In this document: positions 3,525-61,822 of the stretch, piece after piece
Layout of the letters: every line of letters starts with the position of its first letter
Numbering within the stretch: position 1 is the first letter of the stretch
Assembly (NCBI GenBank): GCA_035568175.1
Contig: DATMON010000004.1
Span: forward strand, 374,864-438,863
Length of the DNA stretch: 64,000 bases
Direction of reading: 5' to 3'
Source: Chthoniobacterales bacterium
Lineage (GTDB): Bacteria; Verrucomicrobiota; Verrucomicrobiia; Chthoniobacterales; UBA10450
Notes under the pieces: model-generated
Told to the model about the DNA's origin: nothing
What the model saw: only the letters and a program-made list of their open reading frames with translations
The model's database searches: none
Made by a program: the position numbers and the translations under genes

Positions 3525-4058
3525 TTATTTTGCCGGCCCACTCGACACGACGACCGCCGAGGGGCGCAGCAAGCGGTCTTTGAGACGATAGCCACGGCGG
3601 GTTTGGCGAATCACAAGTCCGTCGGGGACTTCGTTGCTCGGCTCGTGCGCGATCGCTTCGTGCAGATTCGGATCGAATTTCTGGCCAACGGCTTCGATCG
3701 GCTGCAATCCGTTTTCAGCCAGAAAATCCTGGAGCTGCTTGAGCACGAGGGTCATTCCGGAATAAATCGGCGACTTTTCGCTCCCCTCACCGCGCGCCGC
3801 TTCCAAACCAAGCTCGAAGTGATCAACAATCGAAACGAGTTTTTCTAGGAGGCTGCTGTTGGCGTATTTTACCGCCGCTTCCTTTTCCCGAGCGCACCGT
3901 TTCTTGTAATTTTCAAAGTCGGCCTGACTGCGCATCGCCAGATCGCGAAACCGGTCCAGATCCGCTTGCAAACCGGCGACCGGATCGTCCCCGTCAGTTT
4001 GTTCCGCGTCGGGCCGCTTCCTCGGCTCGTGGGATTCAGTCACCGGAATTTTTTTCAT
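3525..4058 (-). CDS. grpE: Nucleotide exchange factor GrpE
   Basis: 177 aa. 'RSQADFENYKKR..' and C-terminal 'RGYRLKDRLLRPSAVVVS' are GrpE signatures. Its ATG overlaps the stop of the upstream phosphatase gene (ATGA at 4055-4058). Confidence 0.9.
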   Translation of the reverse strand: MKKIPVTESHEPRKRPDAEQTDGDDPVAGLQADLDRFRDLAMRSQADFENYKKRCAREKEAAVKYANSSLLEKLVSIVDHFELGLEAARGEGSEKSPIYSGMTLVLKQLQDFLAENGLQPIEAVGQKFDPNLHEAIAHEPSNEVPDGLVIRQTRRGYRLKDRLLRPSAVVVSSGPAK

Positions 4059-5491
4059 GTTTTTCGGATCGCAATCATAGTGATGTCGTCGTTTTGCGGG
4101 GTCGAACCGACGAAGTTTCGCAAATCGTCGATCAACCGTGTAACCATCGCCTGCGCTCCCTCTTTTGCGCTGGATTGAACCGAAGCAATCGTTCGTTCCA
4201 GTCCAAATTCATTCCCTTCATTATCGAGGGCCTCGGTGATTCCATCCGTATAAAGAAGGATGCAATCATTGCTCTCGAGCGGCACCGCGACGTCCGTTGT
4301 CAACCTGTCGAACACGTCTCCGCTGTCAATGCCAACCACCATGCCCGGCGTCTTCAAGGGTGCAACGGTCTGCGATTTCTGTTGGTAGAGAAACGGTGCG
4401 TCATGTCCGGCGCGAGCGAGGGTAACGCTGCCGCGGACCAGATCGAGAACCAGGTAGGCCATGCTGATGAACATGTCCTCCTTGATGTCGGGATAAAGTT
4501 GTCGATTCACTTTTTGGAGAACATCTGCCGGCGATGGATTTCCTACCGCCTGACTGCGCAGGACGCTGCGACAAATTGCCATGATCAGCGACGCCGGAAC
4601 GCCTTTGCCGGAAACATCCGCGATGGCAACGCCGAGTCGTTCGTCATCGACTTTGATATAATCAAAATAATCGCCACTGACCTGGCGCGCCGGGATGTTC
4701 ATGCCGCTGATCTCAAATCCGTTCACCTTCGGCGCTTCGGCCGGAAGAAGAATCCGCTGAATGTCACGCGCGATCTCCAGATCGTGGTCGAGCCGTTTCT
4801 TTTCGTTCGCCTCGGAATAAATGATGGCGTTGTAGAGCGCGAAGGCCGATTGCTCGGTGATCGATTTGAAAACGACAAAATCGTTTTGCGAGAATGGCGA
4901 GCCCATGTGGCTGTTCGCGAGCGCAAGCAGGCCCATGTTCTGTTTCGCGTAGAGAAGCGGCGCCACCAGCACAGAAGTCGCGCCCAGCGAACTGTCCCGC
5001 AGTTTCGCGAGCTCCGGCGCCTCGGAAAATTCATTCAAGCAAAGCGGCGTGGCCGTCTGCCACGCGCGCCCAAGCACTCCCTCACCGACTCCGATATTGT
5101 GGATCCGAAGAAAGGTTTCCAACGCTACCGGCGTGGCTGCAGCTTGCTGCAAAATATGTGGCGGAACGTCCACCAGCGGCGGACAACCTTTGGAAACGAA
5201 GGTAGGCACAAGCTTTGTCCCGGTTCGATCAGTCAGATAAAGCGCGCCACCTTGTGCGTCGAGGACGCGGGTTGCTCCTTCGACAATCAATCGATGCAGA
5301 TCTGCCGGCCTGATTGTTTCACTGAAAGCCTCGCCGAGTCCGTGCAGGAAATCGAAAACCAATGTCTCCTCGACTTGAATTTCTTCCTGCGAACGTTCCA
5401 ACCGGCGAATGCTCCGGCGCAGACGCACCAGCGTATAAATCCACGCGACCAGACACGCGATCAGCAGCCAGAAGAGAATGGATGGCCGCAT
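4055..5491 (-). CDS. Membrane-anchored GAF + PP2C/SpoIIE-type serine phosphatase (RsbU-like)
   Basis: 478 aa. N-terminal TM helix, a GAF-like middle region and a PP2C core 'SGDYFDYI...GVAIADVSGKGVPASLIMA...LLYTDGITEA...NDDITMIAIRK'. Confidence 0.85.
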   Translation of the reverse strand: MRPSILFWLLIACLVAWIYTLVRLRRSIRRLERSQEEIQVEETLVFDFLHGLGEAFSETIRPADLHRLIVEGATRVLDAQGGALYLTDRTGTKLVPTFVSKGCPPLVDVPPHILQQAAATPVALETFLRIHNIGVGEGVLGRAWQTATPLCLNEFSEAPELAKLRDSSLGATSVLVAPLLYAKQNMGLLALANSHMGSPFSQNDFVVFKSITEQSAFALYNAIIYSEANEKKRLDHDLEIARDIQRILLPAEAPKVNGFEISGMNIPARQVSGDYFDYIKVDDERLGVAIADVSGKGVPASLIMAICRSVLRSQAVGNPSPADVLQKVNRQLYPDIKEDMFISMAYLVLDLVRGSVTLARAGHDAPFLYQQKSQTVAPLKTPGMVVGIDSGDVFDRLTTDVAVPLESNDCILLYTDGITEALDNEGNEFGLERTIASVQSSAKEGAQAMVTRLIDDLRNFVGSTPQNDDITMIAIRKT

Positions 5492-5506
5492 GAGATAGTG
5501 GCCAGT

Positions 5507-6019
5507 TTACTCCCCCGCGGTCGTTTGATGGAGGTCCTGTTTTAAATAATCGAGAACGTCTTTAAACCGAGAAAGATTTTCTGGCGCCACCTCGCACAGG
5601 GCCTCATGCGCTTCCAGCATTGTTTCAGCCCTCTCCTTCTTTTCAGTTTCGGCGCCGTCGCGCGCGTTCTCCTTCATCTTTCGGCATTCCGGAGCGGCCG
5701 CGCCATTCGAACGGATTTCGAAAATTTGGTCGAGCCCAAGTCCGGAAAGAAGCTGGAGACTGCGATCGCCACAATGAATAACGTGGAGATGGCCCTGTCC
5801 GAGTTCCTTCAATCGTAGGGCCACCGCCGCCATGGTTCCCATGAAGGTAGAATCCATCATCGCGCAATGTTCCAGGTCAAAAACAAACTCGCGATAGCCG
5901 CGGTTGACCATTTCTTGCGCGAATTCTTTCAGGCTCCCGCTATTCAGGAAGTTACCCTTGCCTTCCACTCGTACCCAAACGGCGGGGCCGTTCACGCCCA
6001 CTAGAATCGATGACTGCAC
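5507..6019 (-). CDS. STAS-domain protein (anti-sigma-factor-antagonist-like) with a C-terminal helical extension
   Basis: 170 aa. SpoIIAA-like layout with 'FDLEHCAMMDSTFMGTM' (conserved DS[ST] position). It sits directly upstream of the PP2C gene on the same strand. Confidence 0.7.
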   Translation of the reverse strand: MQSSILVGVNGPAVWVRVEGKGNFLNSGSLKEFAQEMVNRGYREFVFDLEHCAMMDSTFMGTMAAVALRLKELGQGHLHVIHCGDRSLQLLSGLGLDQIFEIRSNGAAAPECRKMKENARDGAETEKKERAETMLEAHEALCEVAPENLSRFKDVLDYLKQDLHQTTAGE

Positions 6020-6099
6020 AACTGAGTAACTAAGAATACAAGATCGAGAGCGACGCTGTCAAATTGCCAACGCCTCACGACGGGAACGCCCTGCATCAC

Positions 6100-6729
6100 C
6101 TACTCCCACATATAGGAGTGCGTTTCCGCCACGATCGTGCCGTTTTCAATCAGCAAACAACGCCATGCCGTTACTCGCCCGTCGTCGAAGTAATCGTCCC
6201 CAACCACTTTGAACGCCGTTTTATGGCTCCCGCGCGCGTTCGAATACGAAATTTCCTGGGCCTGAACATGGGCATGCAGTTTCTCCTGCTTGTACTCCAG
6301 TCGTACGGTTAGATCAGCTGGACGGCGCGCCTTCCAGAAGAAATCGAAATAATTCCCCATCCGCTCGCGCTGATCGAGCTTGGTCACCGCGCCGAAAAGC
6401 CGGTACTGTCTTTCGAAGCGGATCGAAGCGTCCTGGACCGTGGTCGTTTTACTGGAAGGCGCAGTGCCCGACAGTTTTCCTCCCTTGCCCGTGGCCTGAG
6501 AAGTTTGGTCGCCGGTGTTTTTCGCCTGGCCGGGGACCTCCTCGGTTAAAAGAAAGAGTTTCGTCTTTCGAAACTGGAAATCGTCGCTCAAAGCCGCCGG
6601 TAGCGGAACGACCCGATCGAGCAGGCGGGGTTGCTCCGCCGGGCGACCGAATCCATTCGCCAGCGGAATCAGAGCCAACCATGCGATTAACAACCTCACG
6701 CCTGTTAATGAAACCGGTTCCGCTTTCAC
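6100..6729 (-). CDS. Secreted hypothetical protein
   Basis: 209 aa. Signal-peptide-like N-terminus 'VRLLIAWLALIPLANG'. No family recognised. Confidence 0.45.
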   Translation of the reverse strand: MKAEPVSLTGVRLLIAWLALIPLANGFGRPAEQPRLLDRVVPLPAALSDDFQFRKTKLFLLTEEVPGQAKNTGDQTSQATGKGGKLSGTAPSSKTTTVQDASIRFERQYRLFGAVTKLDQRERMGNYFDFFWKARRPADLTVRLEYKQEKLHAHVQAQEISYSNARGSHKTAFKVVGDDYFDDGRVTAWRCLLIENGTIVAETHSYMWE

Positions 6730-6824
6730 CTGTCAATTCGCAGCAGTGGGAACGGTCCGAGCCGGACTGGCAGTTATCAAACCAATCCAACTTTCGCACG
6801 AGAGGTCAGCGCGTAAATTTGCCG

Positions 6825-9560
6825 ATGATCGAAGTCCGCTACGACCAGGGAGTTTATCTGCCCGTGTCCGACCTGTGGCTCGATCCGTGGGAAGCCAAGC
6901 GGTTCGCTTTTGTGTCGCACGCGCACAGCGATCACATCGCGCCGCATGAAGAGATTGTTCTTTCCGAGCGCACTGCGCGTTTGCTCCAGGCGCGGATGCC
7001 CGGAACCCGAACCGAACATGTCCTGCCGTTCGGCGAACCACACCGCGTCCACGATGTCGATCTAACGCTGCTGCCGGCCGGTCATATTTTTGGCTCGGCT
7101 CAGTTGCTTCTCGCGACCGAAGACGAAACCCTGCTTTACACCGGCGATTTCAAATTGTGTCATGGAAAATCAGCCGAAGCAGCAGAATGGCGTCAGGCCG
7201 ACACGTTGATCATGGAAACGACGTTCGGTTTGCCGCATTACCAATTTCCGCCGACCAAACAAGTGATTACGCAAATCGTCGGGTTCTGCCGGAATGCGAT
7301 CGAAGAAGGCGCCGTGCCGGTCCTCCTCGGCTATTCGTTAGGCAAAGCCCAGGAGATCTTGTGTTCGCTCGAGGGCGCGGGACTGACGCCGATGTTGCAT
7401 GGCTCCGTTTATAAAATGACGCGTATTTACGAACAATTCGGGCAGTCGTTCTGCAAATACGTCCGTTACAACAAGAACAACCTTGCCGGCAAAGTGCTGA
7501 TCTGTCCGCCAAGCGCGAGTCATTCGCCGATGATCGAGAAAATTCCGCGCAAACGCGTCGCGATGATCACCGGTTGGGCAGTCGATCCGAATGCGATTTA
7601 TCGCTATCAGGTCGATGCCGCCTTTCCGCTTTCCGATCATGCCGACTACAACGATCTCATCCGCTATGTCGATCTTGTGCAACCGAAGCGCGTGCTTACC
7701 CTTCACGGCTTTGCCGCCGAGTTCGCGCGCGATTTGCGCGAGCGCGGAATCGAAGCTTGGGCGTTGAGCGAAGAAAATCAGATGGAACTGAAATTGCCAA
7801 AGAGCGTTGTAGCTGCCGGTGTCCCCACCGGCAGTTTTGTAAATCTGCCGCCGGAGACGGCGGCAGCTACACCATCCGAGTTTTTGGATTTCGCCAATGT
7901 CGGCGAGTCAATCGCCGCCACGGCGGCGAAATTAGAGAAAGTGCGCCTGCTCAGCGAATATTTGCGCAACCTGAACAGCGAGCAGTTACCGGCCGTAACG
8001 ACTTACCTGACCGGACGCGCATTCGCCCAGAGCGATTTACGAACATTGCAAGTTGGCTGGGCCGCAATTTATCGCGCGCTGCTCGCCGCCACAAAAATCA
8101 GTGAGAGCGAATTTCATCGTATCGCCGCGACTCACGGCGATCTCGGCAAGACTGCATTCGAAGTTCTCGAAGGACGAACGAAGCCGCAGCCATTTTCAAT
8201 TTTGGAATCCTGTGACTTGTTCGAAAAATTGCATCGCGCGCGCGGACCGATCGCAAAAACGAAACTTCTGCAAACGCGCTTTGCCAATTTATCGGCGCGT
8301 GAAGGTCAATACGTGGTCAAGATTTTGACCGGCGATCTTCGGATTGGGTTACGCGAGGGACTGGTGGAAGAAGCGATCTCGCGCGCGTTCGAAGTTCCAC
8401 TCGAGGAGGTCAAGGAAGCGAACATGTTGCTCGGCGATGTCGGCGCCACGGCATCGCTTGCGTCGGAAAAACAACTGGACCGCGCGGAGTTGTCGATCTT
8501 TCGCCCGATCAAATGCATGCTCGCGACCCCGGAGCCGACCGCGGAAGCGATTTGGGAGCGATTTCGCGACGAGGCCGAAGGGGCAGCAGTTGCAACCGTT
8601 TTCGTCGAAGACAAATTCGACGGCATTCGCGCGCAGCTGCATCGGGATTCCAAACGCGCCGAAATTTATTCGCGCGACCTGCGGCTCATCACCGATCAAT
8701 TTCACGAGCTGGCCGAACAGGCGCGCAAGTTCGATGTCGATCTTATCCTTGATGGCGAGATCGTTGCGTTTGAGCAGGGGCGCAGGCTGACGTTTTTCGA
8801 TTTGCAAAAACGGCTCGGCCGAAAAACGGACGGTGCGGATTTATTTGCAACGGCATCGGCCGATGTTCCAGTTGCGTTTATCGCCTTCGACTTGCTCTGG
8901 CTCAACGGCCGGTCGCTGCTGAAGACCGCGCTCCAGGAACGGCGCGAACTGCTGCGCGGTTTAAAATTACCGGCGCAATTTCAAACCGCAGAAGTTTTTC
9001 CCGCGCATTCAGCCACGGAAATCGACGAACGTTTTCAGCAAGCCCGGCGGCGATTAAATGAGGGCCTGATGGTCAAAGATCCGAACAGCTTCTACACGCC
9101 GGGGGCGCGTGGAATGTTTTGGTTCAAACTAAAGAAAGAACTCGCCACGCTCGACGTGGTGGTAGTCGGCGCGGAATTCGGTCACGGCAAACGCAACAAG
9201 GTGTTGAGCGATTATACTTTTGCAGTGCGCGATGAAACGAGCGGCGACCTTCTGCCGATCGGCAAGGCTTACAGCGGCCTGACCGATGTCGAGATCGCGG
9301 AGCTGACCGAGCACTTCAAACAAAACACGATCGTCGATGACGGTCGATATCGTGAAGTGAAGCCAGATACGGTTCTCGAAATCGCGTTTAACTCGATTCA
9401 GCCGAGTACGCGCCATGCGAGCGGACTGGCGCTGCGCTTTCCGCGCATCAAGGCGATTCGGCGGGACAAAAATGTCGATGCGATCGACACCCTGACCTAC
9501 GCACGCGAACTTGCGGCGCAGGCGGCACGAGCAGGCGTAGATGGAGCTACTAAGGCGTAG
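6825..9560 (+). CDS. Fusion protein: MBL/beta-CASP 'ligase-associated' exonuclease + ATP-dependent DNA ligase
   Basis: The ORF track gives 6681-9560. I prefer the ATG at 6825 ('MIEVRYDQG..'), which removes the overlap with the divergent gene. The N-terminal half has HxHxDH ('SHAHSDHI', near 6918) and the beta-CASP end '..LHGFAAEFARDLRERGIEAWAL'. The C-terminal half has ligase motif I 'EDKFDGIRAQL' (Lys codon at 8613) plus the OB-fold region 'WFKLKKE..LDVVVVGAEFGHGKR'. Confidence 0.85.
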   Translation: MIEVRYDQGVYLPVSDLWLDPWEAKRFAFVSHAHSDHIAPHEEIVLSERTARLLQARMPGTRTEHVLPFGEPHRVHDVDLTLLPAGHIFGSAQLLLATEDETLLYTGDFKLCHGKSAEAAEWRQADTLIMETTFGLPHYQFPPTKQVITQIVGFCRNAIEEGAVPVLLGYSLGKAQEILCSLEGAGLTPMLHGSVYKMTRIYEQFGQSFCKYVRYNKNNLAGKVLICPPSASHSPMIEKIPRKRVAMITGWAVDPNAIYRYQVDAAFPLSDHADYNDLIRYVDLVQPKRVLTLHGFAAEFARDLRERGIEAWALSEENQMELKLPKSVVAAGVPTGSFVNLPPETAAATPSEFLDFANVGESIAATAAKLEKVRLLSEYLRNLNSEQLPAVTTYLTGRAFAQSDLRTLQVGWAAIYRALLAATKISESEFHRIAATHGDLGKTAFEVLEGRTKPQPFSILESCDLFEKLHRARGPIAKTKLLQTRFANLSAREGQYVVKILTGDLRIGLREGLVEEAISRAFEVPLEEVKEANMLLGDVGATASLASEKQLDRAELSIFRPIKCMLATPEPTAEAIWERFRDEAEGAAVATVFVEDKFDGIRAQLHRDSKRAEIYSRDLRLITDQFHELAEQARKFDVDLILDGEIVAFEQGRRLTFFDLQKRLGRKTDGADLFATASADVPVAFIAFDLLWLNGRSLLKTALQERRELLRGLKLPAQFQTAEVFPAHSATEIDERFQQARRRLNEGLMVKDPNSFYTPGARGMFWFKLKKELATLDVVVVGAEFGHGKRNKVLSDYTFAVRDETSGDLLPIGKAYSGLTDVEIAELTEHFKQNTIVDDGRYREVKPDTVLEIAFNSIQPSTRHASGLALRFPRIKAIRRDKNVDAIDTLTYARELAAQAARAGVDGATKA
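7808..7871. repeat. REP-like palindromic element (copy e), translated in frame as the exonuclease-ligase linker
   Basis: TGTAGCTGCCGGTGTCCCCACCGGCAGTTTTGTAAATCTGCCGCCGGAGACGGCGGCAGCTACA. It has an 11-bp perfect terminal inverted repeat and two internal 9-bp stem-loops (CTGCCGGTG/CACCGGCAG and CTGCCGCCG/CGGCGGCAG). Confidence 0.75.
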
Positions 9561-11439
9561 CCGAAGGGGACGGTGAAGCGCCTGGTTGATTACCTTGTTT
9601 GAGTTCCCGCTTTGATTCCTTCTTCTCTTCTCGTTTCTGCTCTTTCTTTTCCTTTTTGGTCAGATTTTCGGCTGGTGAAATCGAAGCGGCAGGACTTGTA
9701 CTCGCCCGCGCCGGAGACGTCGGAGCTGGCGTCGCCGAGACTGCTGCTCCCATCGGCACGATCTTGCGATGATGAGCGTCCTGCTCTTGAGATTTGAATT
9801 TGCCGGGGGCTGCTTCCGGTTGCTCCACGCCAGTGGCTGCCGGGCCAGCCGCTCGCGAAGGCACCGGCGTCGTAGTTGCAGCAACAGTGTGTGTTGGAGT
9901 CGGCGAAACCGACGCCACTGGTCTTGGTGTCGCGCTCGGCGTTGCCCGCGGAGTCGGTGTTGCATTCGGAACCAGCAATCGTCCGCGGCGTTGCGACGCA
10001 GTCGGCAAAGCTGATGCTGACGACGTCGGCGTCGCGGTTGCGGCCGATGTCGGTGATCGCTCAGACGGAGTTACCCTCCGCGGCGTCATCTTCGGTTCGC
10101 GAGTCGATGTTGGACCCGCAGATGGCGCTTCTGTCGGTGATTGTTCAACCGAAAGTGCTTTTCGCGGAGTGGCCTTCGGTTCAGGCGACATCGTGGCCGA
10201 CGGCAATGGCGTGGCGGCGACCGATGTCGATGAAGCCGGCGTCTCGGAACCTTCAGAAGCCGCGGTCGTTGCCGCAGCAGCCTTTACAAATTTTTTTGAT
10301 GGCGCATTCGGCGGCGGAGTCGCTTCCGCTTTCATTTTCTCACGCGTTTTCTTGGCAAGTTCGTGATCGGCAATTCCCGCCCAACCGAGATCGACCGTAA
10401 CTTGCGTGATGTTTTGTTTCACAGCCCGCGGCCGTTCGCTCGCCTGCGGCGCCGAAATCACCGGCGCAGCCACGATTACGGTTTCGCCCTGAACAAGCGG
10501 ACGTGGTGCTTCCACATTCACGTCAACACTGAGGTTGCGTTCCAAGCGAAATCGCTGCATTGGCTCGCGGCTTTGCGCGCGCAACTCGTCGTAGTTCGGA
10601 CCTTCGTTAACGACGGTCGTGTTATTATAAGTGATGTTCGTGACGTTGGTGGTTTGATTGACGATGGTCACGTTGCGTTCCGGCGGCACAATGGTGGACT
10701 CGATCCGCTGCGCGCCGAATTCTCTGGTCGGGACAAAAGAATATTGGTCCGGACCGATGTCGTAATAATTATCGGACCAATTGTGGATGCCGGTGCGCTG
10801 ATCGAATCGCGCTTCCGGCGGCAGCGGCGCCCAGCCGACGTAATCGTTGCTCTTGCGCCAGGAAACCCAGGCCGGCGCCCATTGATCACCAGGAACCCAA
10901 ACCCAGCCGATTCCGCCCAGGCGCGTCCAGCGGCCGTAGTGATACGTGGCCCAGCCGAATGGCTCCTCGGAGATCCAAGTCCAGCCGGCGTCGGTGTAAA
11001 CCCAGCGACCGTTCGTGTAAGGACGCCAACTTCGCGAGCTTTCTGCTTCGCGCGGTTGCCAAACATAGCCGTAATCATTTGTCTCCAACCACGCGCCATG
11101 AGGCTCGAGCTGGGTATAAAAAGTTGAATAGCCTCCAGTCGGCGCGCTTTCTCGAGGAGGACGCGCGCGCGACTCGATGGGCTCGGATTCAGATCGCTCG
11201 CGAGGGCCCGGCGTCGCTGCAGCCGCGTTCTCCTTTTCCGCGAGCGCTTTTTCGCGCGCATCGAGATCGGCTTGCCGCTGTTGAAGCTGTTGCTGCTGCT
11301 CGACCTGATGTTCCGCCACCAGTCGTTCCTGGACCTGGCGCTCAACTTCCGCGTTCTTTTCGGCTTCCGTTTGCTGTTTCTGGCAGGAAATAAGAGCTGC
11401 GACCGCTATCACGGCCGGGAATACAAAAAGCTTGTTCAT
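9550..11439 (-). CDS. Lipoprotein with a W/G-rich DUF6600-like domain and a long P/T/S/A-rich, K/E-terminated tail
   Basis: 629 aa. Lipobox 'AALISC', a Q-rich coiled coil, the region 'WRPYTNGRWVYTDAGWTWISEEPFGWATYHYGRWTRLGGIGWVWVPG..WAPAWVSWR', then about 250 aa of low complexity ending 'KKEKKEQKREEKKESKR'. Confidence 0.7.
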   Translation of the reverse strand: MNKLFVFPAVIAVAALISCQKQQTEAEKNAEVERQVQERLVAEHQVEQQQQLQQRQADLDAREKALAEKENAAAATPGPRERSESEPIESRARPPRESAPTGGYSTFYTQLEPHGAWLETNDYGYVWQPREAESSRSWRPYTNGRWVYTDAGWTWISEEPFGWATYHYGRWTRLGGIGWVWVPGDQWAPAWVSWRKSNDYVGWAPLPPEARFDQRTGIHNWSDNYYDIGPDQYSFVPTREFGAQRIESTIVPPERNVTIVNQTTNVTNITYNNTTVVNEGPNYDELRAQSREPMQRFRLERNLSVDVNVEAPRPLVQGETVIVAAPVISAPQASERPRAVKQNITQVTVDLGWAGIADHELAKKTREKMKAEATPPPNAPSKKFVKAAAATTAASEGSETPASSTSVAATPLPSATMSPEPKATPRKALSVEQSPTEAPSAGPTSTREPKMTPRRVTPSERSPTSAATATPTSSASALPTASQRRGRLLVPNATPTPRATPSATPRPVASVSPTPTHTVAATTTPVPSRAAGPAATGVEQPEAAPGKFKSQEQDAHHRKIVPMGAAVSATPAPTSPARASTSPAASISPAENLTKKEKKEQKREEKKESKRELKQGNQPGASPSPSATP

Positions 11440-11472
11440 CGCGATGATTAGACCTCTTTTCTTCCTCGTTAT

Positions 11473-11655
11473 TCAACGGGTTGGCGCCTGCGAGGGCGTC
11501 GCGGTTTGAGCGGAAGCCGGCGTGAAAATGACGCTTTCTATTTTTGCGCGTCGCAGCTTTTGGATATTCGCGTAAAGCGCGACCAGTGCGAACCCGATGG
11601 CGATGGCGAGCATGAGTCGCACAACATTTTTCGACACGCCGGATTCCGAGCTCAC
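11473..11655 (-). CDS. Small single-pass membrane protein (hypothetical)
   Basis: 60 aa with one clear TM helix 'VVRLMLAIAIGFALVALYANI'. It is packed between same-strand genes. No homology recognised. Confidence 0.35.
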   Translation of the reverse strand: MSSESGVSKNVVRLMLAIAIGFALVALYANIQKLRRAKIESVIFTPASAQTATPSQAPTR

Positions 11656-11662
11656 GCCGAAA

Positions 11663-12310
11663 CTATCGATGTCGATCTTGCCGGCGCAAATCTTCTTCGG
11701 TCAACTGCAACGCTGCGATCGAATCCATCACCCGTTGGCTCAACCGCGCGTAAAGATCTTTACCGCCGGTGGTAAGATCTGCATCCGAGAAATAAATCGG
11801 CTCACCAACTACGATCGTGATTTTACGCCACAAATGAATCCTTCCGTGGATCGGCCAGGCATCGAACGCGCCGAAAATACGCATCGGCACAACCGGTGCG
11901 TGCGTTTTCGCGATGAGCAAGCCCAGACCCGCCGCGGCGGGCTGCAGATTCCCGTCTGGCGTGCGCGAGCCTTCTGGAAAAACCAATGCGCACTCGCCCG
12001 CGCTCAGGATTCGAATCAACGCTTTCAGCGCGCTTCGGTCACCGCCTTGCAAATTGACTGGAACGACGTTGAGCTTGGGTAAAAGCCAGCCGAGCACCGG
12101 TATATTCATCAACGATTTTTTCGCCAGAAAATAAATAGGCCGATCGCAAGCGTTACCGGCCAGCGGTGGATCGAAAAAACTTTGGTGATTTATGGCCAGA
12201 ATCACCGGCCCGGTCTGAATGACGCGCTCCCGGTTGATAATTCGGAACCCGAAAAACAACTGCGCGAGTAACCGACTGAGATGGTAACCGAGCCAGTAGT
12301 AAAAATTCAT
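11663..12310 (-). CDS. plsC: 1-acyl-sn-glycerol-3-phosphate acyltransferase
   Basis: 215 aa. HX4D motif 'NHQSFFDP' and 'VFPEGSRTPDG' are typical of the PlsC/LPLAT family. Confidence 0.8.
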   Translation of the reverse strand: MNFYYWLGYHLSRLLAQLFFGFRIINRERVIQTGPVILAINHQSFFDPPLAGNACDRPIYFLAKKSLMNIPVLGWLLPKLNVVPVNLQGGDRSALKALIRILSAGECALVFPEGSRTPDGNLQPAAAGLGLLIAKTHAPVVPMRIFGAFDAWPIHGRIHLWRKITIVVGEPIYFSDADLTTGGKDLYARLSQRVMDSIAALQLTEEDLRRQDRHR

Positions 12311-12334
12311 TACCGGTTTTGTGATCTAATTTCG

Positions 12335-12991
12335 TTAAACCGCTAAATTTCTTCCGCGCAATCGGTTAACGATTTCATCTACGACCTGCTCGACGGTGAG
12401 ATTTGAGGTATCAATCACTTCGGCGTCTTCGGCGACGACGAGCGGAGAAGCGGCGCGCGACGAATCGGCTTGATCGCGGCGCGCGATTTCGTCGCGATGT
12501 CCCTGGGCGGCGCGCCGTTGAGCACGCACTTCGGGCGACGCATCGATGTAAAACTTATAGGGCGTTTCTGAAAAAACTACCGAGCCAATGTCGCGACCTT
12601 CAACGACCAGGTCATGCTTGTTCGCGTAATCGCGCATTCTCCGCACAAGAATCTCGCGAACTTCCGGGACCGTGCTCACGCGCGACACTTCGCTGTTCAC
12701 GCGATCTTCGTGCAGATGTTCCGTTAGATCGACATTGTCGATCAAAAGGTGAAGTTCCCGGTCCTTCAACACGCCACCCACCGACAAAGTCGCGATTAGT
12801 TCCGCGATCCGACGTTCGTCTGACGGATCGATACCAGCTTTAAGCACCGACCAGGTGACAGCGCGATACATCGCACCGGAATTGACGTAAACGAAGCCAA
12901 GACGACGCGCCAGCTGACGGGCTACGCTGCTCTTTCCCGAAGCGGCCGGACCGTCGATGGCGATTACACGATGTCGATCTTGTGCTTGCAT
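12335..12991 (-). CDS. cmk: Cytidylate kinase
   Basis: Start taken at the ATG at 12991 ('MQAQDRHRVIAIDGPAASGKSSVARQLA'; P-loop GPAASGKS). The longer track ORF, extending to 13291, would overlap aroA. Confidence 0.9.
   Translation of the reverse strand: MQAQDRHRVIAIDGPAASGKSSVARQLARRLGFVYVNSGAMYRAVTWSVLKAGIDPSDERRIAELIATLSVGGVLKDRELHLLIDNVDLTEHLHEDRVNSEVSRVSTVPEVREILVRRMRDYANKHDLVVEGRDIGSVVFSETPYKFYIDASPEVRAQRRAAQGHRDEIARRDQADSSRAASPLVVAEDAEVIDTSNLTVEQVVDEIVNRLRGRNLAV
12725..12745. repeat. Back-to-back inverted pair of the hyper-abundant 10-mer (degenerate copies) inside cmk
   Basis: TAGATCGACA-T-TGTCGATCAA, a near-perfect 21-nt palindrome. See the first finding. Confidence 0.6.
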
Positions 12992-13049
12992 CTGTGACTG
13001 CGCGCGACGCGCAGTTTTTCGCGGAACGCGTGGGGAAGCAAGCGCTTGA

Positions 13050-14399
13050 TTATTCTTCCACCGGCGCAGCCGGCACGAGCGTGCCAATGACCGGGGTGCT
13101 GGTGCGAGCCCGTCTTGGACTGATGAACTCGTCCAAAGCTCGTTCGAAGCCCGGATACGATTCACGAATGCACTCGGCATCTTGAATAATTGTTTCGCCG
13201 TCGGCAAAGAGACCTGCCACTGCGAAGGCCATCGCGATTCGGTGATCGCCAAAACTGGACAGTCGCGCACCGCGCAACGGCGCGGGCCCATGGATTTCTA
13301 GGCCGTCATTGAGCTCAATCACTTGCACGCCCATACCCCGTAAATTATGGGCGATGGCAGAGATCCGATCGGTTTCTTTGACGCGCAGCTCATGAGCGTG
13401 GCGAATGATCGTCGTGCCGCTGGCCAACGCGCCCGCGACTGCCAGCACCGGCAATTCGTCGATCAATTGCGGGATTTCTTTCCCGTGAATCACCGTGCCT
13501 TTGAGCGGCGCACCGGTCACTTCAACGACGCCGCGCGGTTCCAATTGATCGACACCTTCGACCGCTTCGCGCACTTGCGCGCCCATTCGAACCAAAACAC
13601 CAAGTAAGGCCGTTCGGGTGTCGTTCAATCCGATGTTACGCACGAGGAGATGGCCGCCCGATTGCGCCGCCGCCGCGACCAACCAGAAGGCCGCTGAAGA
13701 AAGGTCGCCTGGAATCGAAAAATCGCGCGACTCCGGGACCTGGTCGCCGAAAACGCTGATCGTGTCTTCGCCTTTCGCGGTGCGGATTAAAAAATAATTA
13801 AACATCAGCTCGGTGTGATTGCGGCTTGCCGATGGCTCATCCACGGTCGTTTTGCCCTTGGCGAAGAGTCCGGCCAGGAGAATGGCGCTTTTGACCTGAG
13901 CACTGGCGACGGGCGAACGATAACGGATACCGCGCAAAGATCCGCCACGGATGCGCAGCGGCGGCGTTTGTTCCGGACCTTCAGCGACAATGTCCGCGCC
14001 CATTTTTCGCAGCGGCTCGATAATACGGTCCATTGGGCGGCGGGTAAGGGACGGATTCCCGACTAATCGCGTTTCAAAAGTTTGACCGGCAAGCAAACCG
14101 GCGAACAGACGCATGGTTGTACCGGAGCCGCCGCAATCGATCTCGTCTTTTGGCGGGGTCAGGACGCGTTTCTTTCCGTGGACAATGAGAATGTCCGGTT
14201 CGGGTTGTTCAATCTGGATTCCAAGCGCTCGCAATGCGCCAACCGTATGCATGCAGTCGTCGCTCGGAAGGAAGCCGCGCAAATTGCAGACGCCGTTTGA
14301 AAGCGCAGCAATAATAGCGGCGCGGTGTGAGATACTTTTGTCGCCCGGAACAGTGATCTCAGCTTCAATCCGAGGCGCTCGTTTTACGCGCAGCTCCAT
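13050..14399 (-). CDS. aroA: 3-phosphoshikimate 1-carboxyvinyltransferase (EPSP synthase)
   Basis: 449 aa. 'VPGDKSISHRAAIIAAL', 'GGSGTTMRLFAGLLAG' and 'RVKETDRI' are AroA hallmarks. The aroA-cmk order is common. Confidence 0.95.
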   Translation of the reverse strand: MELRVKRAPRIEAEITVPGDKSISHRAAIIAALSNGVCNLRGFLPSDDCMHTVGALRALGIQIEQPEPDILIVHGKKRVLTPPKDEIDCGGSGTTMRLFAGLLAGQTFETRLVGNPSLTRRPMDRIIEPLRKMGADIVAEGPEQTPPLRIRGGSLRGIRYRSPVASAQVKSAILLAGLFAKGKTTVDEPSASRNHTELMFNYFLIRTAKGEDTISVFGDQVPESRDFSIPGDLSSAAFWLVAAAAQSGGHLLVRNIGLNDTRTALLGVLVRMGAQVREAVEGVDQLEPRGVVEVTGAPLKGTVIHGKEIPQLIDELPVLAVAGALASGTTIIRHAHELRVKETDRISAIAHNLRGMGVQVIELNDGLEIHGPAPLRGARLSSFGDHRIAMAFAVAGLFADGETIIQDAECIRESYPGFERALDEFISPRRARTSTPVIGTLVPAAPVEE

Positions 14400-25864: not shown

Positions 25865-25924
25865 TGTAGCGGCGGTCTGCGACCGTCGCATTAATTCGTC
25901 CGACGCTCATAGAGCGCCGCTACA
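25865..25924. repeat. REP-like palindromic element (copy a), intergenic
   Basis: TGTAGCGGCGGTCTGCGACCGTCGC...GAGCGCCGCTACA. It has a 10-bp terminal inverted repeat (TGTAGCGGCG/CGCCGCTACA) and an internal stem GCGGCGGTC-TGC-GACCGTCGC. Its first 15 nt, including the preceding C, are identical to copy d. Confidence 0.7.
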
Positions 25925-26651
25925 AAGAAAGAAATTTTCGCCACGATTCCGGCAGGTCCGCCGTTTCAATCTCGCTGGCGATGCGGCCTTCGAATTCGGG
26001 CTGAAATGTTGTGCTGGTTCCGTAAACCATGAGCACGTCTTCCGAACCTTCGGTCCGAATCGCGTGCGCTACGCCAGGCGGAATCACGACGCCAACATTA
26101 TTGCGGCTGCGATGATTGTCGCCGTCGACAAAAAATCGCATGTTGCGCACGGGTAGACCGGCGCGCACATCCCGTAGAAAAATCTCAGCACGACCCTGGA
26201 GAAAGAACATGATGTCCCACTGCTCGCGATCGTACGGACGCAGCGAATAGTTCTGCGGTTGGCTGACAAATAAACGCCGCAACCATTTTTCCGCTGTCGT
26301 GTCCGCCGGAACGCTGGGGGGATGAATATGAAATCCTTTCGCGCTGTTTGCGAACATCCGTGCAGCCGACCATTGCCGTGGCCAAAGCTTGATCTTACCC
26401 AGAACCCCTTGCGAATCGCGCGCCAACTCGCCAAAACTGCCCCGATGGCGTTGGGGATGAATCTCTCTGGAAAAAATCTCAACGCCCGGGATCCAAACTT
26501 TCTTCAGTTCTGCGCCGCGACCGGCGGCCAGTTCGCCGCCATCGACGCCCGTTCCCGCGATTCGCTGGGCGACAGTACCGTTTTTGTAGTTACGCGGCGA
26601 GAGCCCTTTTCGTGCACGCTCATTAAGACCGAGCCACAAATCTTCTTTCAT
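25920..26651 (-). CDS. RmlC-like cupin (dTDP-4-dehydrorhamnose 3,5-epimerase-like)
   Basis: 243 aa. Cupin strands 'KGFHIHPP' and 'VVIPPGVAHAIR'. The family-level call only. Confidence 0.65.
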   Translation of the reverse strand: MKEDLWLGLNERARKGLSPRNYKNGTVAQRIAGTGVDGGELAAGRGAELKKVWIPGVEIFSREIHPQRHRGSFGELARDSQGVLGKIKLWPRQWSAARMFANSAKGFHIHPPSVPADTTAEKWLRRLFVSQPQNYSLRPYDREQWDIMFFLQGRAEIFLRDVRAGLPVRNMRFFVDGDNHRSRNNVGVVIPPGVAHAIRTEGSEDVLMVYGTSTTFQPEFEGRIASEIETADLPESWRKFLSL

Positions 26652-41376: not shown

Positions 41377-42570
41377 ATGCCGGAAGTCACAGACAAAGTT
41401 CTGCCGCCAGAGACAGCGGTAGCTACAACGCCAAAAACTGCGTCGCAATGGACGCGCGCCAATCCGTTTCCTGGAAAGCTTATCGTCAATCGCCGGTTAA
41501 GCAGTGACGACTCGGAAAAGGACACACGCCATTTCGAGATCGATCTGACCGGCTGGGGGTTAAATTTTGAACCGGGCGACTCGGTCGCGGTTTATCCGAC
41601 GAACGATCCTAACCTGGTCGAGGAGATTCTTCGCGCTCTCGGGGCGAAAGGTGACGAACCGGTGCTGGCAGCGAAAACGACGAAACCGTTTCGGGATGCG
41701 TTGTTGCGCGATTACTCCATCACTCAGCCAACCCCGAAGTTTCTCAAAGCGGTTGCCCAACGCGCATCGGCCGCGCCGATGCTGACGGAATTGCTGCACC
41801 CAGATCGCAAGCACGATCTCGAAAATTATCTTTGGGGCGCGGAAGTGATCGATTTTCTGCTCGAGCATCCGTCCGTAAAATTCACGCCAGAGGAATTCGT
41901 CGGACTGCTCACGAAATTGCAGCCACGACTGTATTCGGTCGCATCCAGTCTGCGCGTTTTTCCGGACCAGGTGCACCTGATTGTCGATGTTGTGCAGTAT
42001 GAAACCCGCGGGCGCGCCAGGAAAGGGGTCGCGTCGACGTTTCTGGCCGAGCGCGCGGATAAAGTTCCGGTGCCGGTTTATCCAAGCTCGGCAAAACATT
42101 TTCACATGCCGGAAAATCAGAACTTGCCGCTGATCATGATTGGACCCGGTACCGGGGTGGCGCCGTTCCGCGCGTTTTTGCAGGACCGACAAGCTCTCGG
42201 TGCGAAAGGAAAAAACTGGCTGTTTTACGGGGCGCAGCGCGAGAAATGCGATTACGCTTACAGTGAAGATTGGGAACGCTTCTCGCGCGACGGTCTTTTG
42301 ACAAAACTTGATTGCGCATGGTCACGCGATCAAACCCACAAGATCTATGTCCAGCACAAGATGCTGGAAAACGCGGCTGAAATCTGGAAATGGATCGATG
42401 GCGAAGGTGCCCAGTTTTTTGTTTGCGGTGACGCGCGACGCATGGCGAAAGATGTCGATGCTGCCCTGCGTAAGATCATCCAGGAACAAGGTGGCAAGTC
42501 TGTGGATGAAGCAAACGCCTACGTGGAGAAGCTCAAGAACGAGAAGCGCTACAAGCGCGACGTCTATTAG
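41377..42570 (+). CDS. CysJ-like FAD/NADPH oxidoreductase (sulfite-reductase flavoprotein C-terminal module, no flavodoxin domain)
   Basis: 397 aa. 'RLYSVASS' (FAD binding), 'MIGPGTGVAPFRAF' (NADPH binding) and the C-terminal 'YKRDVY'. Confidence 0.8.
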   Translation: MPEVTDKVLPPETAVATTPKTASQWTRANPFPGKLIVNRRLSSDDSEKDTRHFEIDLTGWGLNFEPGDSVAVYPTNDPNLVEEILRALGAKGDEPVLAAKTTKPFRDALLRDYSITQPTPKFLKAVAQRASAAPMLTELLHPDRKHDLENYLWGAEVIDFLLEHPSVKFTPEEFVGLLTKLQPRLYSVASSLRVFPDQVHLIVDVVQYETRGRARKGVASTFLAERADKVPVPVYPSSAKHFHMPENQNLPLIMIGPGTGVAPFRAFLQDRQALGAKGKNWLFYGAQREKCDYAYSEDWERFSRDGLLTKLDCAWSRDQTHKIYVQHKMLENAAEIWKWIDGEGAQFFVCGDARRMAKDVDAALRKIIQEQGGKSVDEANAYVEKLKNEKRYKRDVY

Positions 42571-45876: not shown

Positions 45877-46563
45877 TCAGCAGGTGAGTAATCGAAATCG
45901 TAATTTCCAATACGACATTGGAAGCGGCGTCGGGATGCATGCGAAGACGCCGTAGCGACGCTGCGGATTCGGACGGGGGTCGCGTTCGTTATCCAAACTT
46001 TGAAAGCGTTGGAATAGCGGATCGTCGCCGAAGAATGCGTTGGGAAAATTGCGCTCGACGAATTTTCGTTGAGGCGAAGCCGGCGGGAAATCGTGGACGA
46101 ACATCGCGCACGGTTTTCCGGTGCGGAGAAGATCGACAGCCAACTTGAGCGCGCGGAAATCTTTTGGGCCGTCGATCAGGACCGCGTCGCCCTCTTGCAA
46201 TCGTTGCGGCAAAATCTCACGGGAATCGCCGTAAAGAAGATCGACATTCGATTCAGGCTTCAGTTTTGCTTCCGCCGCGGGAGCATTTTCCGATTGCCGA
46301 TCGTACTCAATGCTAATGATCCGCGCCTCCGGAAAGCAACGCGCGAGAATGAGGGTGCTTTTCCCGCGAGCACGTCCTGATTCCAGAATTTGTTTCGGCT
46401 CGAATGGTTTCACCGCGGCGTAAAACAGAAACATTTCGCTCTCCCAAATTCCGCCAAAACCGGCTTCGGGCGGAATGTTCCCTATTATTTCTCGATATTC
46501 CGGCAACAAAGCATCGGCGCCGTCGGCCACGGCGGATTTAGTTAACGCAATCTGTTCAGGCAT
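45877..46563 (-). CDS. Putative SAM-dependent methyltransferase (Methyltransf_24/CmcI-like)
   Basis: 228 aa. 'ILESGRARGKSTLILA..IISIEY...DAVLIDGPKD' resembles a class I MTase core. Weak call. Confidence 0.45.
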   Translation of the reverse strand: MPEQIALTKSAVADGADALLPEYREIIGNIPPEAGFGGIWESEMFLFYAAVKPFEPKQILESGRARGKSTLILARCFPEARIISIEYDRQSENAPAAEAKLKPESNVDLLYGDSREILPQRLQEGDAVLIDGPKDFRALKLAVDLLRTGKPCAMFVHDFPPASPQRKFVERNFPNAFFGDDPLFQRFQSLDNERDPRPNPQRRYGVFACIPTPLPMSYWKLRFRLLTC

Positions 46564-46568
46564 AGTTT

Positions 46569-46622
46569 TGTAGCCGTCGCCCTGTGAGCGACGCGCGCGC
46601 GTCCCACAGGGACGCGGCTACA
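46569..46622. repeat. REP-like palindromic element (copy b), divergent intergenic region
   Basis: TGTAGCCGTCGCCCTGTGAGCGACGCGCGCGCGTCCCACAGGGACGCGGCTACA. The outer stem is TGTAGCCG/CGGCTACA and the inner stem is CCCTGTG/CACAGGG. Confidence 0.7.
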
Positions 46623-46668
46623 GGAAATCATCGCCGGTTTGTGTGGTTAGGCCACCAGATTTAAGTTG

Positions 46669-47676
46669 ATGTCGATGCAAAATTTGCCGTTCGACGAACG
46701 CGCTTGCTTCATCGCGGGCGCGGCCAAGTCCGGGACGACGTTGCTCGTTTCGCTGCTCGACAGTCATCCCGAGCTGCTGGTCATGCCGCAGGACACTGCC
46801 TATTTTCCGACGGTGCTGACGAAATACGGATCGCGCGGGCGCCGGGCCCAATTCGATTATTTGACCCAAGAATCGTGGACGAACGTGCTATTCGGGTTTC
46901 AAGCGATGCGCGGCCGGCAGGATTACGCCGAGTTTCCAAAACAGAAATTTCTCGAGACGTTTGAACACGTGGCCTTCGATCCGGCGAACACGAACAGAGA
47001 TTTGCTGGTGCTGATGATGGAAGCGTACGCGCAGGTCGTCGGGGCTCCGCTCGAACGAATAAAGCGTTGGGTGGAAAAAACTCCGGCCAATCGCAATTAC
47101 GTCTCGGAGATTTTCAATCGATTTCCGAAAGCGAAGTTGCTGCTGACGATGCGCGATCCCCGCGCGCTGCTGGCGGCGCAGATCGCACTCGAAAATACGA
47201 GAAAGACGCGGCGGTTTTCTGTTTACTATGTAGTGGCGCACTGGCGGGCTGCGGCAAAGCTCGCAAAAAAAATTCGGACGAAGGAAATTCCAGGTCTCAT
47301 TGTCGGTTACGAAGACCTCGCGCTCGATCCCAAGATGTCGATGCAAAAGGTGTGCGACTATCTCGAGATCATTTTCGATCCCGAAATTGTTCTGAATCCG
47401 ACCAAGGTCGGCCGTTCATGGGCGGGCAATTCCGCCGCCGGTGTGCGGTTTGACGAAATCAGTACCGCGCCGGTCACTCGATGGAAAAGCGAATTGGAAG
47501 AAGACGAAATCGGCTGGGTGGAATGGCATTGCCGGGATTTGATGCCGGAATTCGGCTACGAGCCGCGCTTGAACCGGCGATCACTGCGCTATTTCATCAA
47601 ACCGATCCGCGGCGAGCGGCCGAAAGAATTTCTTAAATCACGCGCGTATTCGTTGCGGGATCGTTTGAAGAGCTAA
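46669..47676 (+). CDS. Sulfotransferase-family protein
   Basis: 5'-PSB loop 'IAGAAKSGTTLLVSLLDSHP' and 3'-PB-like 'LLTMRDPRA'. Confidence 0.8.
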   Translation: MSMQNLPFDERACFIAGAAKSGTTLLVSLLDSHPELLVMPQDTAYFPTVLTKYGSRGRRAQFDYLTQESWTNVLFGFQAMRGRQDYAEFPKQKFLETFEHVAFDPANTNRDLLVLMMEAYAQVVGAPLERIKRWVEKTPANRNYVSEIFNRFPKAKLLLTMRDPRALLAAQIALENTRKTRRFSVYYVVAHWRAAAKLAKKIRTKEIPGLIVGYEDLALDPKMSMQKVCDYLEIIFDPEIVLNPTKVGRSWAGNSAAGVRFDEISTAPVTRWKSELEEDEIGWVEWHCRDLMPEFGYEPRLNRRSLRYFIKPIRGERPKEFLKSRAYSLRDRLKS

Positions 47677-60424: not shown

Positions 60425-60486
60425 CGCAAGGGGAGAACTCGTCCGTTACGTAATACGGCGTCTGGCGGGCAAAGTTCCCTAGTCGT

Positions 60487-60543
60487 TGTAGCCACGCGCC
60501 TGTGGCGCGTCGGACTGGATGGCCCATTGGGGGCGTGGCTACA
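60487..60543. repeat. REP-like palindromic element (copy c), comEC/rarA divergent intergenic region
   Basis: TGTAGCCACGCGCCTGTGGCGCGTCGGACTGGATGGCCCATTGGGGGCGTGGCTACA. It has an 11-bp perfect terminal inverted repeat and an inner stem ACGCGCC-TGT-GGCGCGT. It shares 'GCGTCGGAC' with the reverse complement of copy a. Confidence 0.75.
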
Positions 60544-60583
60544 CGCAGATGCACAATTCGTCGGCTCGTCGTATTTTCTATTC

Positions 60584-61822
60584 GTGCAGGATTTGTTTAC
60601 CGAGGAAGACCGCGATTCTGTTAAGGGCAACCCGCCTGAGGCGGGCGCGCCGCTGGCGACGCGAATGCGGCCGCGGTCGCTCGATGAATTTGTCGGCCAG
60701 GAACATATTCTTGCGCCTGGAAAATTGCTGCGCCGCGCGATTGAAGCCGATCGTTTGCCCTCGGTGATTTTATCGGGGCCGCCCGGAACCGGAAAAACCA
60801 CACTCGCTCACATCATCGCCGACATGACGCGCGCCAAGTTTGTGCGTTTAAGCGGCGTAGAAAGCAACGTCGCGGAAATGCGTCGCGTGATCGCGGGCGC
60901 GACCAATCGCACTCGCAGTTCTGGACAAAAGACGATTTTGTTCATCGACGAGATACATCACTTCAACAAAGCGCAGCAGGACATTCTCCTGCCCGATGTC
61001 GAAAGCGGAAACCTGCGACTGATCGGCGCGACCACTTACAATCCGTTTTTCTACGTCAACAGTCCGCTCGTCTCGCGGTCACAAGTTTTCCAACTCGAAC
61101 CGTTGCGTGTCGAGGAACTGGAAGAACTGATTGATCGCGCGCTGGTCGACAAGGAACGCGGACTTGGCAATTACAACGTGAAGATCGACAAAGATGCGAG
61201 AAAGCATCTGGCCAAGCTGAGCGACGGCGACGCGCGCAAATGTTTAAACGCGCTGGAGATTGGCGTCATGACCACGCCGCCTGAAACTGTAGCGGCGGTC
61301 TATGACCGCCAGCAGAAAAAGACCGGCGCTGACACGGCGTCGCTACAGCAGTCAGTGATTCATTTCACGATCGCGGTTGCGGAAGAAAGCATTCAGCAGA
61401 AAGCAATCGTGTACGATCGCGCTGGGGATGCGCATTACGACACGATCAGCGCGTTTATCAAGAGCATGCGCGCGTCCGATGAGAAAGGCGCGATGTACTG
61501 GCTCGCGAAAATGCTACACGCCGGCGAAGACTTTCGTTTCATCGCGCGCCGGATCGTGATTTTTGCGAGCGAAGACGTTGGCCTGGCCGATCCAGAAGCG
61601 CTCCCGCTCGCAATCGCCACCCAGCAAGCGGTCGAATTCGTCGGCTTGCCGGAAGCAAAGATTCCGCTCGGGCATGCGGTCGCGTACATGTGCCGCGCCA
61701 AAAAAAGCCGCGAAGCCTACGACGCGCTGAACGAAGCGACCGAAAAAATCGAAGCCGAACAAACCAAGCGCGTCCCCGAAAATCTCAAAAACAAACACTT
61801 TCCGGTGAATCCGGAGAAGTAA
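60584..61822 (+). CDS. rarA: Replication-associated recombination protein A (RarA/MgsA AAA+ ATPase)
   Basis: 'PLATRMRPRSLDEFVGQEHIL', Walker A 'GPPGTGKTT', Walker B 'ILFIDEIHHFNK' and 'YDRAGDAHYDTISAFIKSMR'. The GTG at 60584 is preferred; the track ORF start at 60080 overlaps comEC. Confidence 0.85.
   Translation: MQDLFTEEDRDSVKGNPPEAGAPLATRMRPRSLDEFVGQEHILAPGKLLRRAIEADRLPSVILSGPPGTGKTTLAHIIADMTRAKFVRLSGVESNVAEMRRVIAGATNRTRSSGQKTILFIDEIHHFNKAQQDILLPDVESGNLRLIGATTYNPFFYVNSPLVSRSQVFQLEPLRVEELEELIDRALVDKERGLGNYNVKIDKDARKHLAKLSDGDARKCLNALEIGVMTTPPETVAAVYDRQQKKTGADTASLQQSVIHFTIAVAEESIQQKAIVYDRAGDAHYDTISAFIKSMRASDEKGAMYWLAKMLHAGEDFRFIARRIVIFASEDVGLADPEALPLAIATQQAVEFVGLPEAKIPLGHAVAYMCRAKKSREAYDALNEATEKIEAEQTKRVPENLKNKHFPVNPEK
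61287..61348. repeat. REP-like palindromic element (copy d), translated in frame inside rarA
   Basis: CTGTAGCGGCGGTCTATGACCGCCAGCAGAAAAAGACCGGCGCTGACACGGCGTCGCTACAG. It has an 8-bp terminal inverted repeat and an inner stem GGCGGTC-TAT-GACCGCC. It encodes '..TVAAVYDRQQKKTGADTASLQQ..'. Confidence 0.7.

Follow-up and report, generated by a model that had tools for sequence, protein, structure and literature searches.

A GTAG-type REP doublet in the interdomain linker of an exonuclease–DNA ligase fusion from a Chthoniobacterales bacterium

GTAG-type REPs and exonuclease–ligase fusions

Repetitive extragenic palindromic sequences (REPs) of the GTAG type lie mostly between genes, and some are found wholly inside open reading frames (ORFs; Di Nocera et al., 2013, BMC Genomics 14:522, PMC3733652). 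More than half of the intragenic GTAG inserts are dimers or groups that encode 20–30 aa; Opitutus terrae has the most intragenic copies, and the host genes are enriched in functions of DNA synthesis and repair (PMC3733652). The 1017-aa "DNA ligase I" of O. terrae (Oter_3148), which carries one REP (aa 482–488) and one REP dimer (aa 639–653) (PMC3733652), is probably a fused exonuclease–ligase, judged from its length. An element of this kind is described here at positions 7808–7871 of a 64-kb stretch of DNA from a Chthoniobacterales bacterium (contig DATMON010000004.1; the whole 64,000-nt stretch is called the window below), where it is translated as most of the linker between the two modules of an exonuclease–ATP-dependent DNA ligase fusion.

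Like the intragenic GTAG REPs of O. terrae, the window element is built of short GTAG-headed palindromes arranged as an inverted "HH dimer" with GTAG outward, and one copy of its family likewise gives a TAG stop to a flanking ORF (PMC3733652). Unlike them, it resides in a host of another order (Chthoniobacterales), has other stem sequences and makes up most of an exonuclease–ligase linker. The O. terrae study contains no many-species comparison of orthologous sites, and hence no account of several families turning over at one linker (PMC3733652). The element also resembles REPINs (REP doublets forming hairpins; Bertels and Rainey, 2011, PMC3116915; Nunvar et al.; Ton-Hoang et al.) in its inverted REP pair, short spacer, capacity to form one long hairpin, many dispersed copies and GTAG end. 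In contrast to classical REPINs, which are extragenic by definition, it is intragenic, and stems differ widely between the copies in the window. The Rickettsia palindromic elements (Ogata et al., 2000; reviewed in PMC10969869) offer a functional parallel: they are selfish palindromes that sit in frame in unrelated genes, at positions compatible with the protein fold, and are translated. RPE-1 (~150 bp, from alphaproteobacterial families) is not known to be related in sequence to the window element.

The fusion itself has been recorded for O. terrae (Ejaz and Shuman, 2018, as cited in PMC10140301) and, away from the Lhr/MPE cluster, in Antarctic Dry Valley metagenomes (PMC10140301). The window gene shares with both an N-terminal metallo-β-lactamase (MBL)/RMMBL nuclease followed by a DBD-NTase-OB ATP-dependent ligase, and with the Dry Valley fusions a position outside an Lhr/MPE cluster. 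An earlier note on this DNA had stated that exonuclease and ligase are separate genes in the described loci, which is correct for the canonical Lhr/MPE/exonuclease/LigB cluster but not for the fused versions already published (PMC10140301). The papers on exonuclease–LigB fusions (Ejaz and Shuman, 2018; PMC10140301) do not discuss the linker or repeats within it.

An in-frame REP doublet between exonuclease and ligase

The fusion gene and the element within it are laid out as follows.

6822–9560, + strand: exonuclease–ATP-dependent DNA ligase (LigB-type) fusion ORF, 912 aa plus stop (ORF list, Pfam/NCBIfam domains, homologs)
6843–7772, + strand: MBL/beta-CASP module resembling the "ligase-associated DNA damage response exonuclease", aa 8–317 (TIGR04122, Lactamase_B_2, RMMBL)
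7797–7874, + strand: hypervariable interdomain linker P326–P351, PKSVVAAGVPTGSFVNLPPETAAATP (alignment of 120 proteins and 160 loci)
7808–7871, + strand: REPIN-like element, an inverted doublet of GTAG-headed REP hairpins with GTAG ends outward, in-frame translation V330–T350
7809–7834, + strand: left REP unit, GTAG followed by CTGCCGGTG, tccc and CACCGGCAG
7845–7870, − strand: right REP unit, GTAG followed by CTGCCGCCG, tctc and CGGCGGCAG
7878–9515, + strand: LigB-type ATP-dependent DNA ligase module, aa 353–898 (DNA_ligase_A_N, _M and _C)

The 64 nt of the element (TGTAGCTGCCGGTGTCCCCACCGGCAGTTTTGTAAATCTGCCGCCGGAGACGGCGGCAGCTACA) have the arms of a perfect 11-bp inverted repeat at their ends (TGTAGCTGCCG/CGGCAGCTACA) and hold two perfect 9-bp stem-loops with 4-nt loops, which are partners on opposite strands separated by a spacer of 10 nt. 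A GTAG-type REP unit is a palindrome of 20–40 nt, with a stem of 6–9 bp and a small loop, beside a GTAG tetranucleotide. With its GTAG heads, short stems and small loops, inverted pairing and dispersed copies, 7808–7871 is a GTAG-type REP doublet, a palindromic repeat that is non-autonomous and REPIN-like. Five matches to the pattern TGTAGC-N35-65-GCTACA lie in the 64-kb window, to which the copy census is limited, against an expectation of 0.03; besides the linker copy there are four others, and three of the five full copies are intergenic and two inside ORFs. The hexamer TGTAGC itself is found 23 times in the window (8.2 expected). Heads and architecture are common to all of these copies, and their stem sequences are widely different.

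The predicted RNA fold of 7790–7890 has a free energy of −47.5 kcal/mol, compared with −28.0 ± 3.2 kcal/mol for 200 dinucleotide shuffles, none of which is as stable (z = −6.1), and among 67 same-length segments of the fusion gene the linker gives the most stable fold (z = −3.4). TTTTGT follows the first hairpin, and part of this T-run is taken up by a stem extension of G-T and A-T pairs; a terminator/promoter scan does not flag the element, which does not qualify as a terminator. A search of Rfam with the element gave no match above threshold, only plant and animal miRNA hairpins below it, i.e., generic hairpins.

The variable linker P326–P351 is 78 nt long, and 64 of these nucleotides belong to the element (V330–T350). 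Read in one of the element's three frames, the GTAG head becomes a TAG stop; in the fusion gene the element is read as VAAGVPTGSFVNLPPETAAAT, and the second open frame gives a Cys- and Arg-rich peptide (CSCRCPHRQFCK..). Three proposals of the earlier note, namely a palindrome at 7808–7871 with an 11-bp terminal inverted repeat and two 9-bp stem-loops, a connector that is largely the translation of a dispersed REP, and a strong hairpin in mid-gene, are borne out by these results.

Turnover at the linker and origin of the element

Relatives of the fusion gene were compared in 160 loci, 80 from genomes (one per species of that collection) and 80 from metagenomes. The gene is fused in all 160, at 70–89% identity (Chthoniobacterales, Candidatus Udaeobacter and "Verrucomicrobia" metagenome-assembled genomes), and a search of cluster representatives gave ~25 further full-length fusion clusters at 42–54% identity, together with unfused exonucleases (~330 aa) and unfused ligases (~550 aa). 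Linkers of the distant fusions (P0122–P0145 among them) are unrelated to that of the window gene, ~25–70 aa long and rich in Pro, Ser and Thr. One of these, in P0126, is long and repeats the motif PGTQN; members of the P0126 cluster (90% identity) have 921 or 899 aa, which hints at linker indels in distant lineages too. These comparisons show a fusion that was already in place in the ancestor of the whole Chthoniobacterales/Udaeobacter group and is also present in much more distant lineages. Alignment to the unfused proteins, which the earlier note had proposed as a check, places the end of the exonucleases at the position of L325, right after ..NQLEL.L, and the start of the ligases a few residues ahead of F354..FA; the linker, flanked by the two, therefore occupies the former gene ends.

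In the alignment of the 120 proteins and 160 loci, positions up to ..ENQMELKL and from SEF.. onward do not vary, and the stretch between them differs in length and sequence. The linker core measures 78–177 nt, a multiple of 3 in 159 of 159 loci, and at least four classes of palindromic element are found in it. Class A, which includes the window copy, consists of TGTAGY...RCTACA doublets with at least three stem variants; class B is an element of ~110 nt (GGGTAGCGCACGCGTCTCG...CGAGACGCGTGCGCTACCC); class C reads GGGGAGCGCACGCG..CGCGTGC ... GCACGCGAGGCGCGTGCGCTCCCC and is left in some loci as a left-half or right-half remnant; and class D reads GGGGAGCGCGGGCATGTTGCCGG...ATGCCCGCGCTCCCC. Decayed versions of these classes are also present. 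Short linkers of 78–81 nt (L071, L077, L069, L061, L023, and L033) have no excess structure, with fold z-scores of about 0. No segment elsewhere in the gene folds more stably than the linker in 21 of 79 species (~1.5 expected by chance), nor in the window; z-scores go down to −9.3.

Classes A, B, C, and D are interleaved on a gene tree from which the linker columns were left out, and the proteins closest to that of the window (88–89% identity) carry a class A element (L010), the left half of a class C element (L001) and a class B element (L114). Since unrelated families stand at the same place in the linker, at least some replacement events occurred. The class C head (GGGGAGCGCACGCG.C.CGCGTGC followed by the small hairpin GGGCGCC.TCGCCC) was found in five unrelated IMG/VR contigs (L161–L165), twice in two of them, and class C is therefore dispersed beyond this gene family; a scan of IMG/VR for the class B head gave no match. 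A protein search with a chimeric query, in which B, C, and D linker peptides were joined by GGGGS, gave no matches, the spacers having probably saturated the word-based candidate list.

Class A elements also stand in frame at two further sites, the first in relatives and the second in the window itself.

8565–8603, + strand: second permissive loop of the fusion gene, from AIWERF to VEDKFDG (motif I), in the window without a REPIN
61288–61347, + strand: family copy in frame inside rarA/mgsA (gene ~60590–61822), peptide TVAAVYDRQQKKTGADTASLQ (by comparison with empty-site orthologs)

The motif-I loop varies from 21 to 105 nt among the loci and holds a type-A doublet in 21 of 159 (e.g., L005, L062, L070, L079, L080, L100, and L133). 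The loop of L005 and L100 encodes SVVAADVPIGSLPPETAAATT, which differs little from the window linker peptide (SVVAAGVPTGSFVNLPPETAAATP), and that of L080 encodes VAGVADPGP, the peptide listed for the O. terrae family GTAG-17 (PMC3733652). The window gene has a short version of this loop (RDEAEGAAVATVF); its GCAGCAGTTGCAACC may be what is left of a right REP end. The copy in rarA lies in the AAA_assoc_2 lid region, which spans 101 aa there against 81 positions in the profile. Orthologs of rarA at 89–91% identity (L166, L168) have an empty site (..TTPPDSKGVIHFT..), the window allele being exactly 60 nt longer, and other orthologs have a different palindrome at the same site (TGGAGGGACG..CGTCCCTCCA), some with an additional HSTSSGQAP segment. 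This presence/absence polymorphism is direct evidence that ORFs are entered by these elements and tolerate them, and the empty, type-A and third-family alleles together prove that the family is, or recently was, mobile. The mobility expected of a REPIN is thus seen in rarA; for the linker copy itself, it is replacement by other families that is seen.

The linker doublet is probably a REPIN-like element that was inserted in frame into a permissive linker of a pre-existing fusion and tolerated there, a possibility that the earlier note had also raised and that fits all the evidence. Because the fusion is older, the palindrome would be secondary to it, a passenger and not its cause; because the palindrome is perfect, the copy is probably young. 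Such copies might land, or replace older ones, by the single-strand mechanism of the HUH/Y1 transposases (REP-associated tyrosine transposases; RAYTs) that mobilize REPs. Selection could then retain those that fall in structurally permissive linkers, preserve the frame and avoid the frame with the TAG stop, and the peptide of the frame in use, rich in Val, Ala, Gly, Pro, Thr, and Ser, would be able to act as a flexible tether.

Several observations weigh against insertion into a permissive linker as the full account. No empty-site linker allele was found among close relatives; all of those at ≥80% identity hold some element, with nearly the same junctions, so that insertion at this site is inferred and not seen. 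In some lineages the element substitutes for a short linker and is not added to it (L050 compared with L071), which makes the history one of turnover and not of simple insertion. Classes B and D are seen only in linkers, dispersal being shown only for class A (window and flanks) and class C, and the gene tree on which the classes interleave is a rough neighbor-joining tree on p-distances with no support values. Mobilization of the family by a RAYT is assumed from the literature on REPs, whose cognate RAYT gene lies in the same genome and usually has REPs on its flanks; a six-frame regular-expression motif search, a weak test, found no RAYT gene in the window or in the 160 related loci (1.5 Mb). 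Disorder of the linker is presumed from its variability and composition only, and an AlphaFold2 model of the fusion (58 sequences, 81–91% identity) is too poor to judge it (mean predicted local distance difference test score, 42.8; predicted template modeling score, 0.26).

The earlier note had put forward a different origin, in which adjacent exonuclease and ligase genes were separated by a REP-bearing spacer and joined by loss of the stop, leaving the linker as the scar of the fusion event. The position of the linker, exactly between the unfused exonuclease stops and the unfused ligase starts, agrees with such read-through, as does the habit of family REPs of lying just past stop codons (one supplies the TAG at 25920–25922), and an ancient event of this kind is conceivable. 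Against it stand the fusion in all 160 loci and in the ~25 clusters at 42–54% identity with unrelated, non-palindromic linkers, its publication for another verrucomicrobial order (O. terrae), the short non-palindromic linkers within the clade (L071, L077, L069, L061, L023, and L033, besides P0122–P0145 outside it), the entirely different elements at the same place in relatives at 88–89% identity (L001, L114), and a palindrome whose perfection ill suits the age of the fusion. The note had itself named orthologous fusions with unrelated, non-palindromic linkers as what would speak against read-through, and read-through is now most improbable and, for this lineage, close to refuted. That a mis-assembled palindrome or a hidden frameshift joins two genes falsely can be given practically no weight: palindromes can cause assembly errors, and the window comes from a metagenome-assembled genome, but an identical protein (P0001) is present in another public assembly, which makes an assembly artifact unlikely, and fusion is seen at every one of 160 independent loci, always with a linker that is in frame and a multiple of 3 in length.

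Insertion and tolerance also have to be set against longer residence. A single type-A insertion in the ancestor of the relatives that are at least 75–80% identical, its palindrome being kept since by gene conversion, with other genomic REPINs as donors, or by template-switch "quasipalindrome correction" with no repeated new insertions, is possible, if doubtful. In its favor, class A elements of many lineages have near-identical junctions (K-x-(V)/TGTAG ... CTACA/xxx-TCN-GAR, with slashes at the borders), and their stems have diverged between lineages while remaining complementary (CTGCCGGTG/CACCGGCAG, CTGCCGCCG/CGGCGGCAG, GGCAGGCG/CGCCTGCC, and GGCGGGCG/CGCCCGC). RNAalifold, applied to 19 type-A elements, recovered the terminal inverted repeat alone, with a change from G-C to U-A at column 7/70 in 8 of 19 sequences; the subfamilies, with loops of 3 or 4 nt, fall out of register. 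Families B, C, and D at the same place in interleaved lineages, some at 86–89% identity to the window protein, and the empty, type-A and third-family alleles of rarA are at odds with a single event. The same preserved pairing through changes on both sides, the strong mid-gene hairpin in 21 of 79 species and the window, and the TTTTGT after the first hairpin would suit a selected structure: an attenuator within the gene, perhaps, or an RNase site, or a pause in translation by which the synthesis of exonuclease and ligase is timed or uncoupled. This is nevertheless very unlikely, given that the linkers of many orthologs have no structure at all, that the structures come from unrelated families, that members of the family also lie between genes and within other genes, and that neither the terminator scan nor Rfam gave support. 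Rather unlikely as well is a stronger form of the insertion model, in which the linker, the motif-I loop and the rarA lid loop would be true integration hotspots, repeatedly targeted or exchanged by REP families that use a resident hairpin and GTAG as landing site, with hairpins actively maintained. If it held, a REPIN population would continuously rewrite interdomain linkers of repair proteins in soil Verrucomicrobia, and expression might be affected, for instance by pausing or by a partial uncoupling of exonuclease and ligase.

The novelty implied in the earlier note was overstated, as in-frame GTAG REP dimers of 20–30 aa in verrucomicrobial DNA-repair genes had already been catalogued (PMC3733652). 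What is new is modest: the element constitutes most of a domain-fusion linker, and several families turn over at one orthologous linker and at two further loops. The locus is a well-sampled example of how selfish palindromes persist in genes, in frame in disordered linkers or surface loops where they supply or replace a tether, and the 160-locus comparison adds to the 2013 catalogue the rapid turnover of several unrelated families at one linker and the presence of the same family in a second loop and in rarA. For annotation, it cautions that hypervariable "low-complexity" linkers of Udaeobacter/Chthoniobacterales proteins can be REP-derived and that such linkers are uninformative about the origin of a domain fusion. 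Understanding of the LigB pathway is unaffected.

Other family copies and the surroundings of the fusion gene

The remaining copies of the family in the window are three intergenic doublets, to which no strand was assigned, and a half copy.

25865–25924, strand not assigned: intergenic copy whose GTAG head gives the TAG stop (25920–25922, − strand) of ORF 25920–26651 (−)
46569–46622, strand not assigned: intergenic copy between the divergent ORFs 45877–46563 (−) and 46666–47676 (+)
60487–60543, strand not assigned: intergenic copy between a ComEC-like gene (−) and rarA (+)
41401–41431, + strand: half copy (right REP unit), an 81% match to the arm of the linker copy, in the predicted N-terminus of ORF 41377–42570

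GTAG units also start at 60488, 61289, and 46621 (−). The ORF that takes its stop from a REPIN head, 25920–26651 (−), has no Pfam match. The half copy reads LPPETAVAT, a peptide common to the ligase linker, and precedes the first Pfam domain (aa 27) of a FAD_binding_1/NAD_binding_1 oxidoreductase, ORF 41377–42570 (+); the true start of this ORF may lie downstream, which would make the half copy an element of the 5′ untranslated region. The listed 580-aa ORF 60080–61822 over-extends rarA upstream through the REPIN at 60487–60543, homologs starting near 60590–60600.

The fusion ORF is uninterrupted across 6822–9560, and its 912 aa are counted from MIEVRYD, which is where homologs start, instead of from an in-frame ATG upstream at 6681 that would give 959 aa; a protein search returned more than 120 full-length homologs of 893–955 aa, P0001 being 100% identical. 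The exonuclease module matches TIGR04122 with 240 bits (E = 2.4e-71) and does not reach the equivalog cut-off of 325, and the ligase module scores 310.5 with TIGR04120, below the equivalog cut-off of 400, its best-scoring models being in a tie with archaeal-type LigA/PRK09247. The two modules are relatives of the TIGR04122 and TIGR04120 families, not equivalogs. No Lhr helicase/MPE phosphoesterase cluster surrounds the gene in the neighborhood from 4055 to 13291; neither the scores nor the neighborhood fits the ligase-associated DNA damage response system. Its neighbors are a GAF-SpoIIE phosphatase, a STAS protein, a hypothetical protein, a DUF6600 protein, an acyltransferase and a cytidylate kinase. 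The DUF6600 ORF, 9550–11439 (−), shares 11 nt with the 3′ end of the fusion ORF, and the long tail of its product is rich in Pro, Ala, Thr, and Ser.

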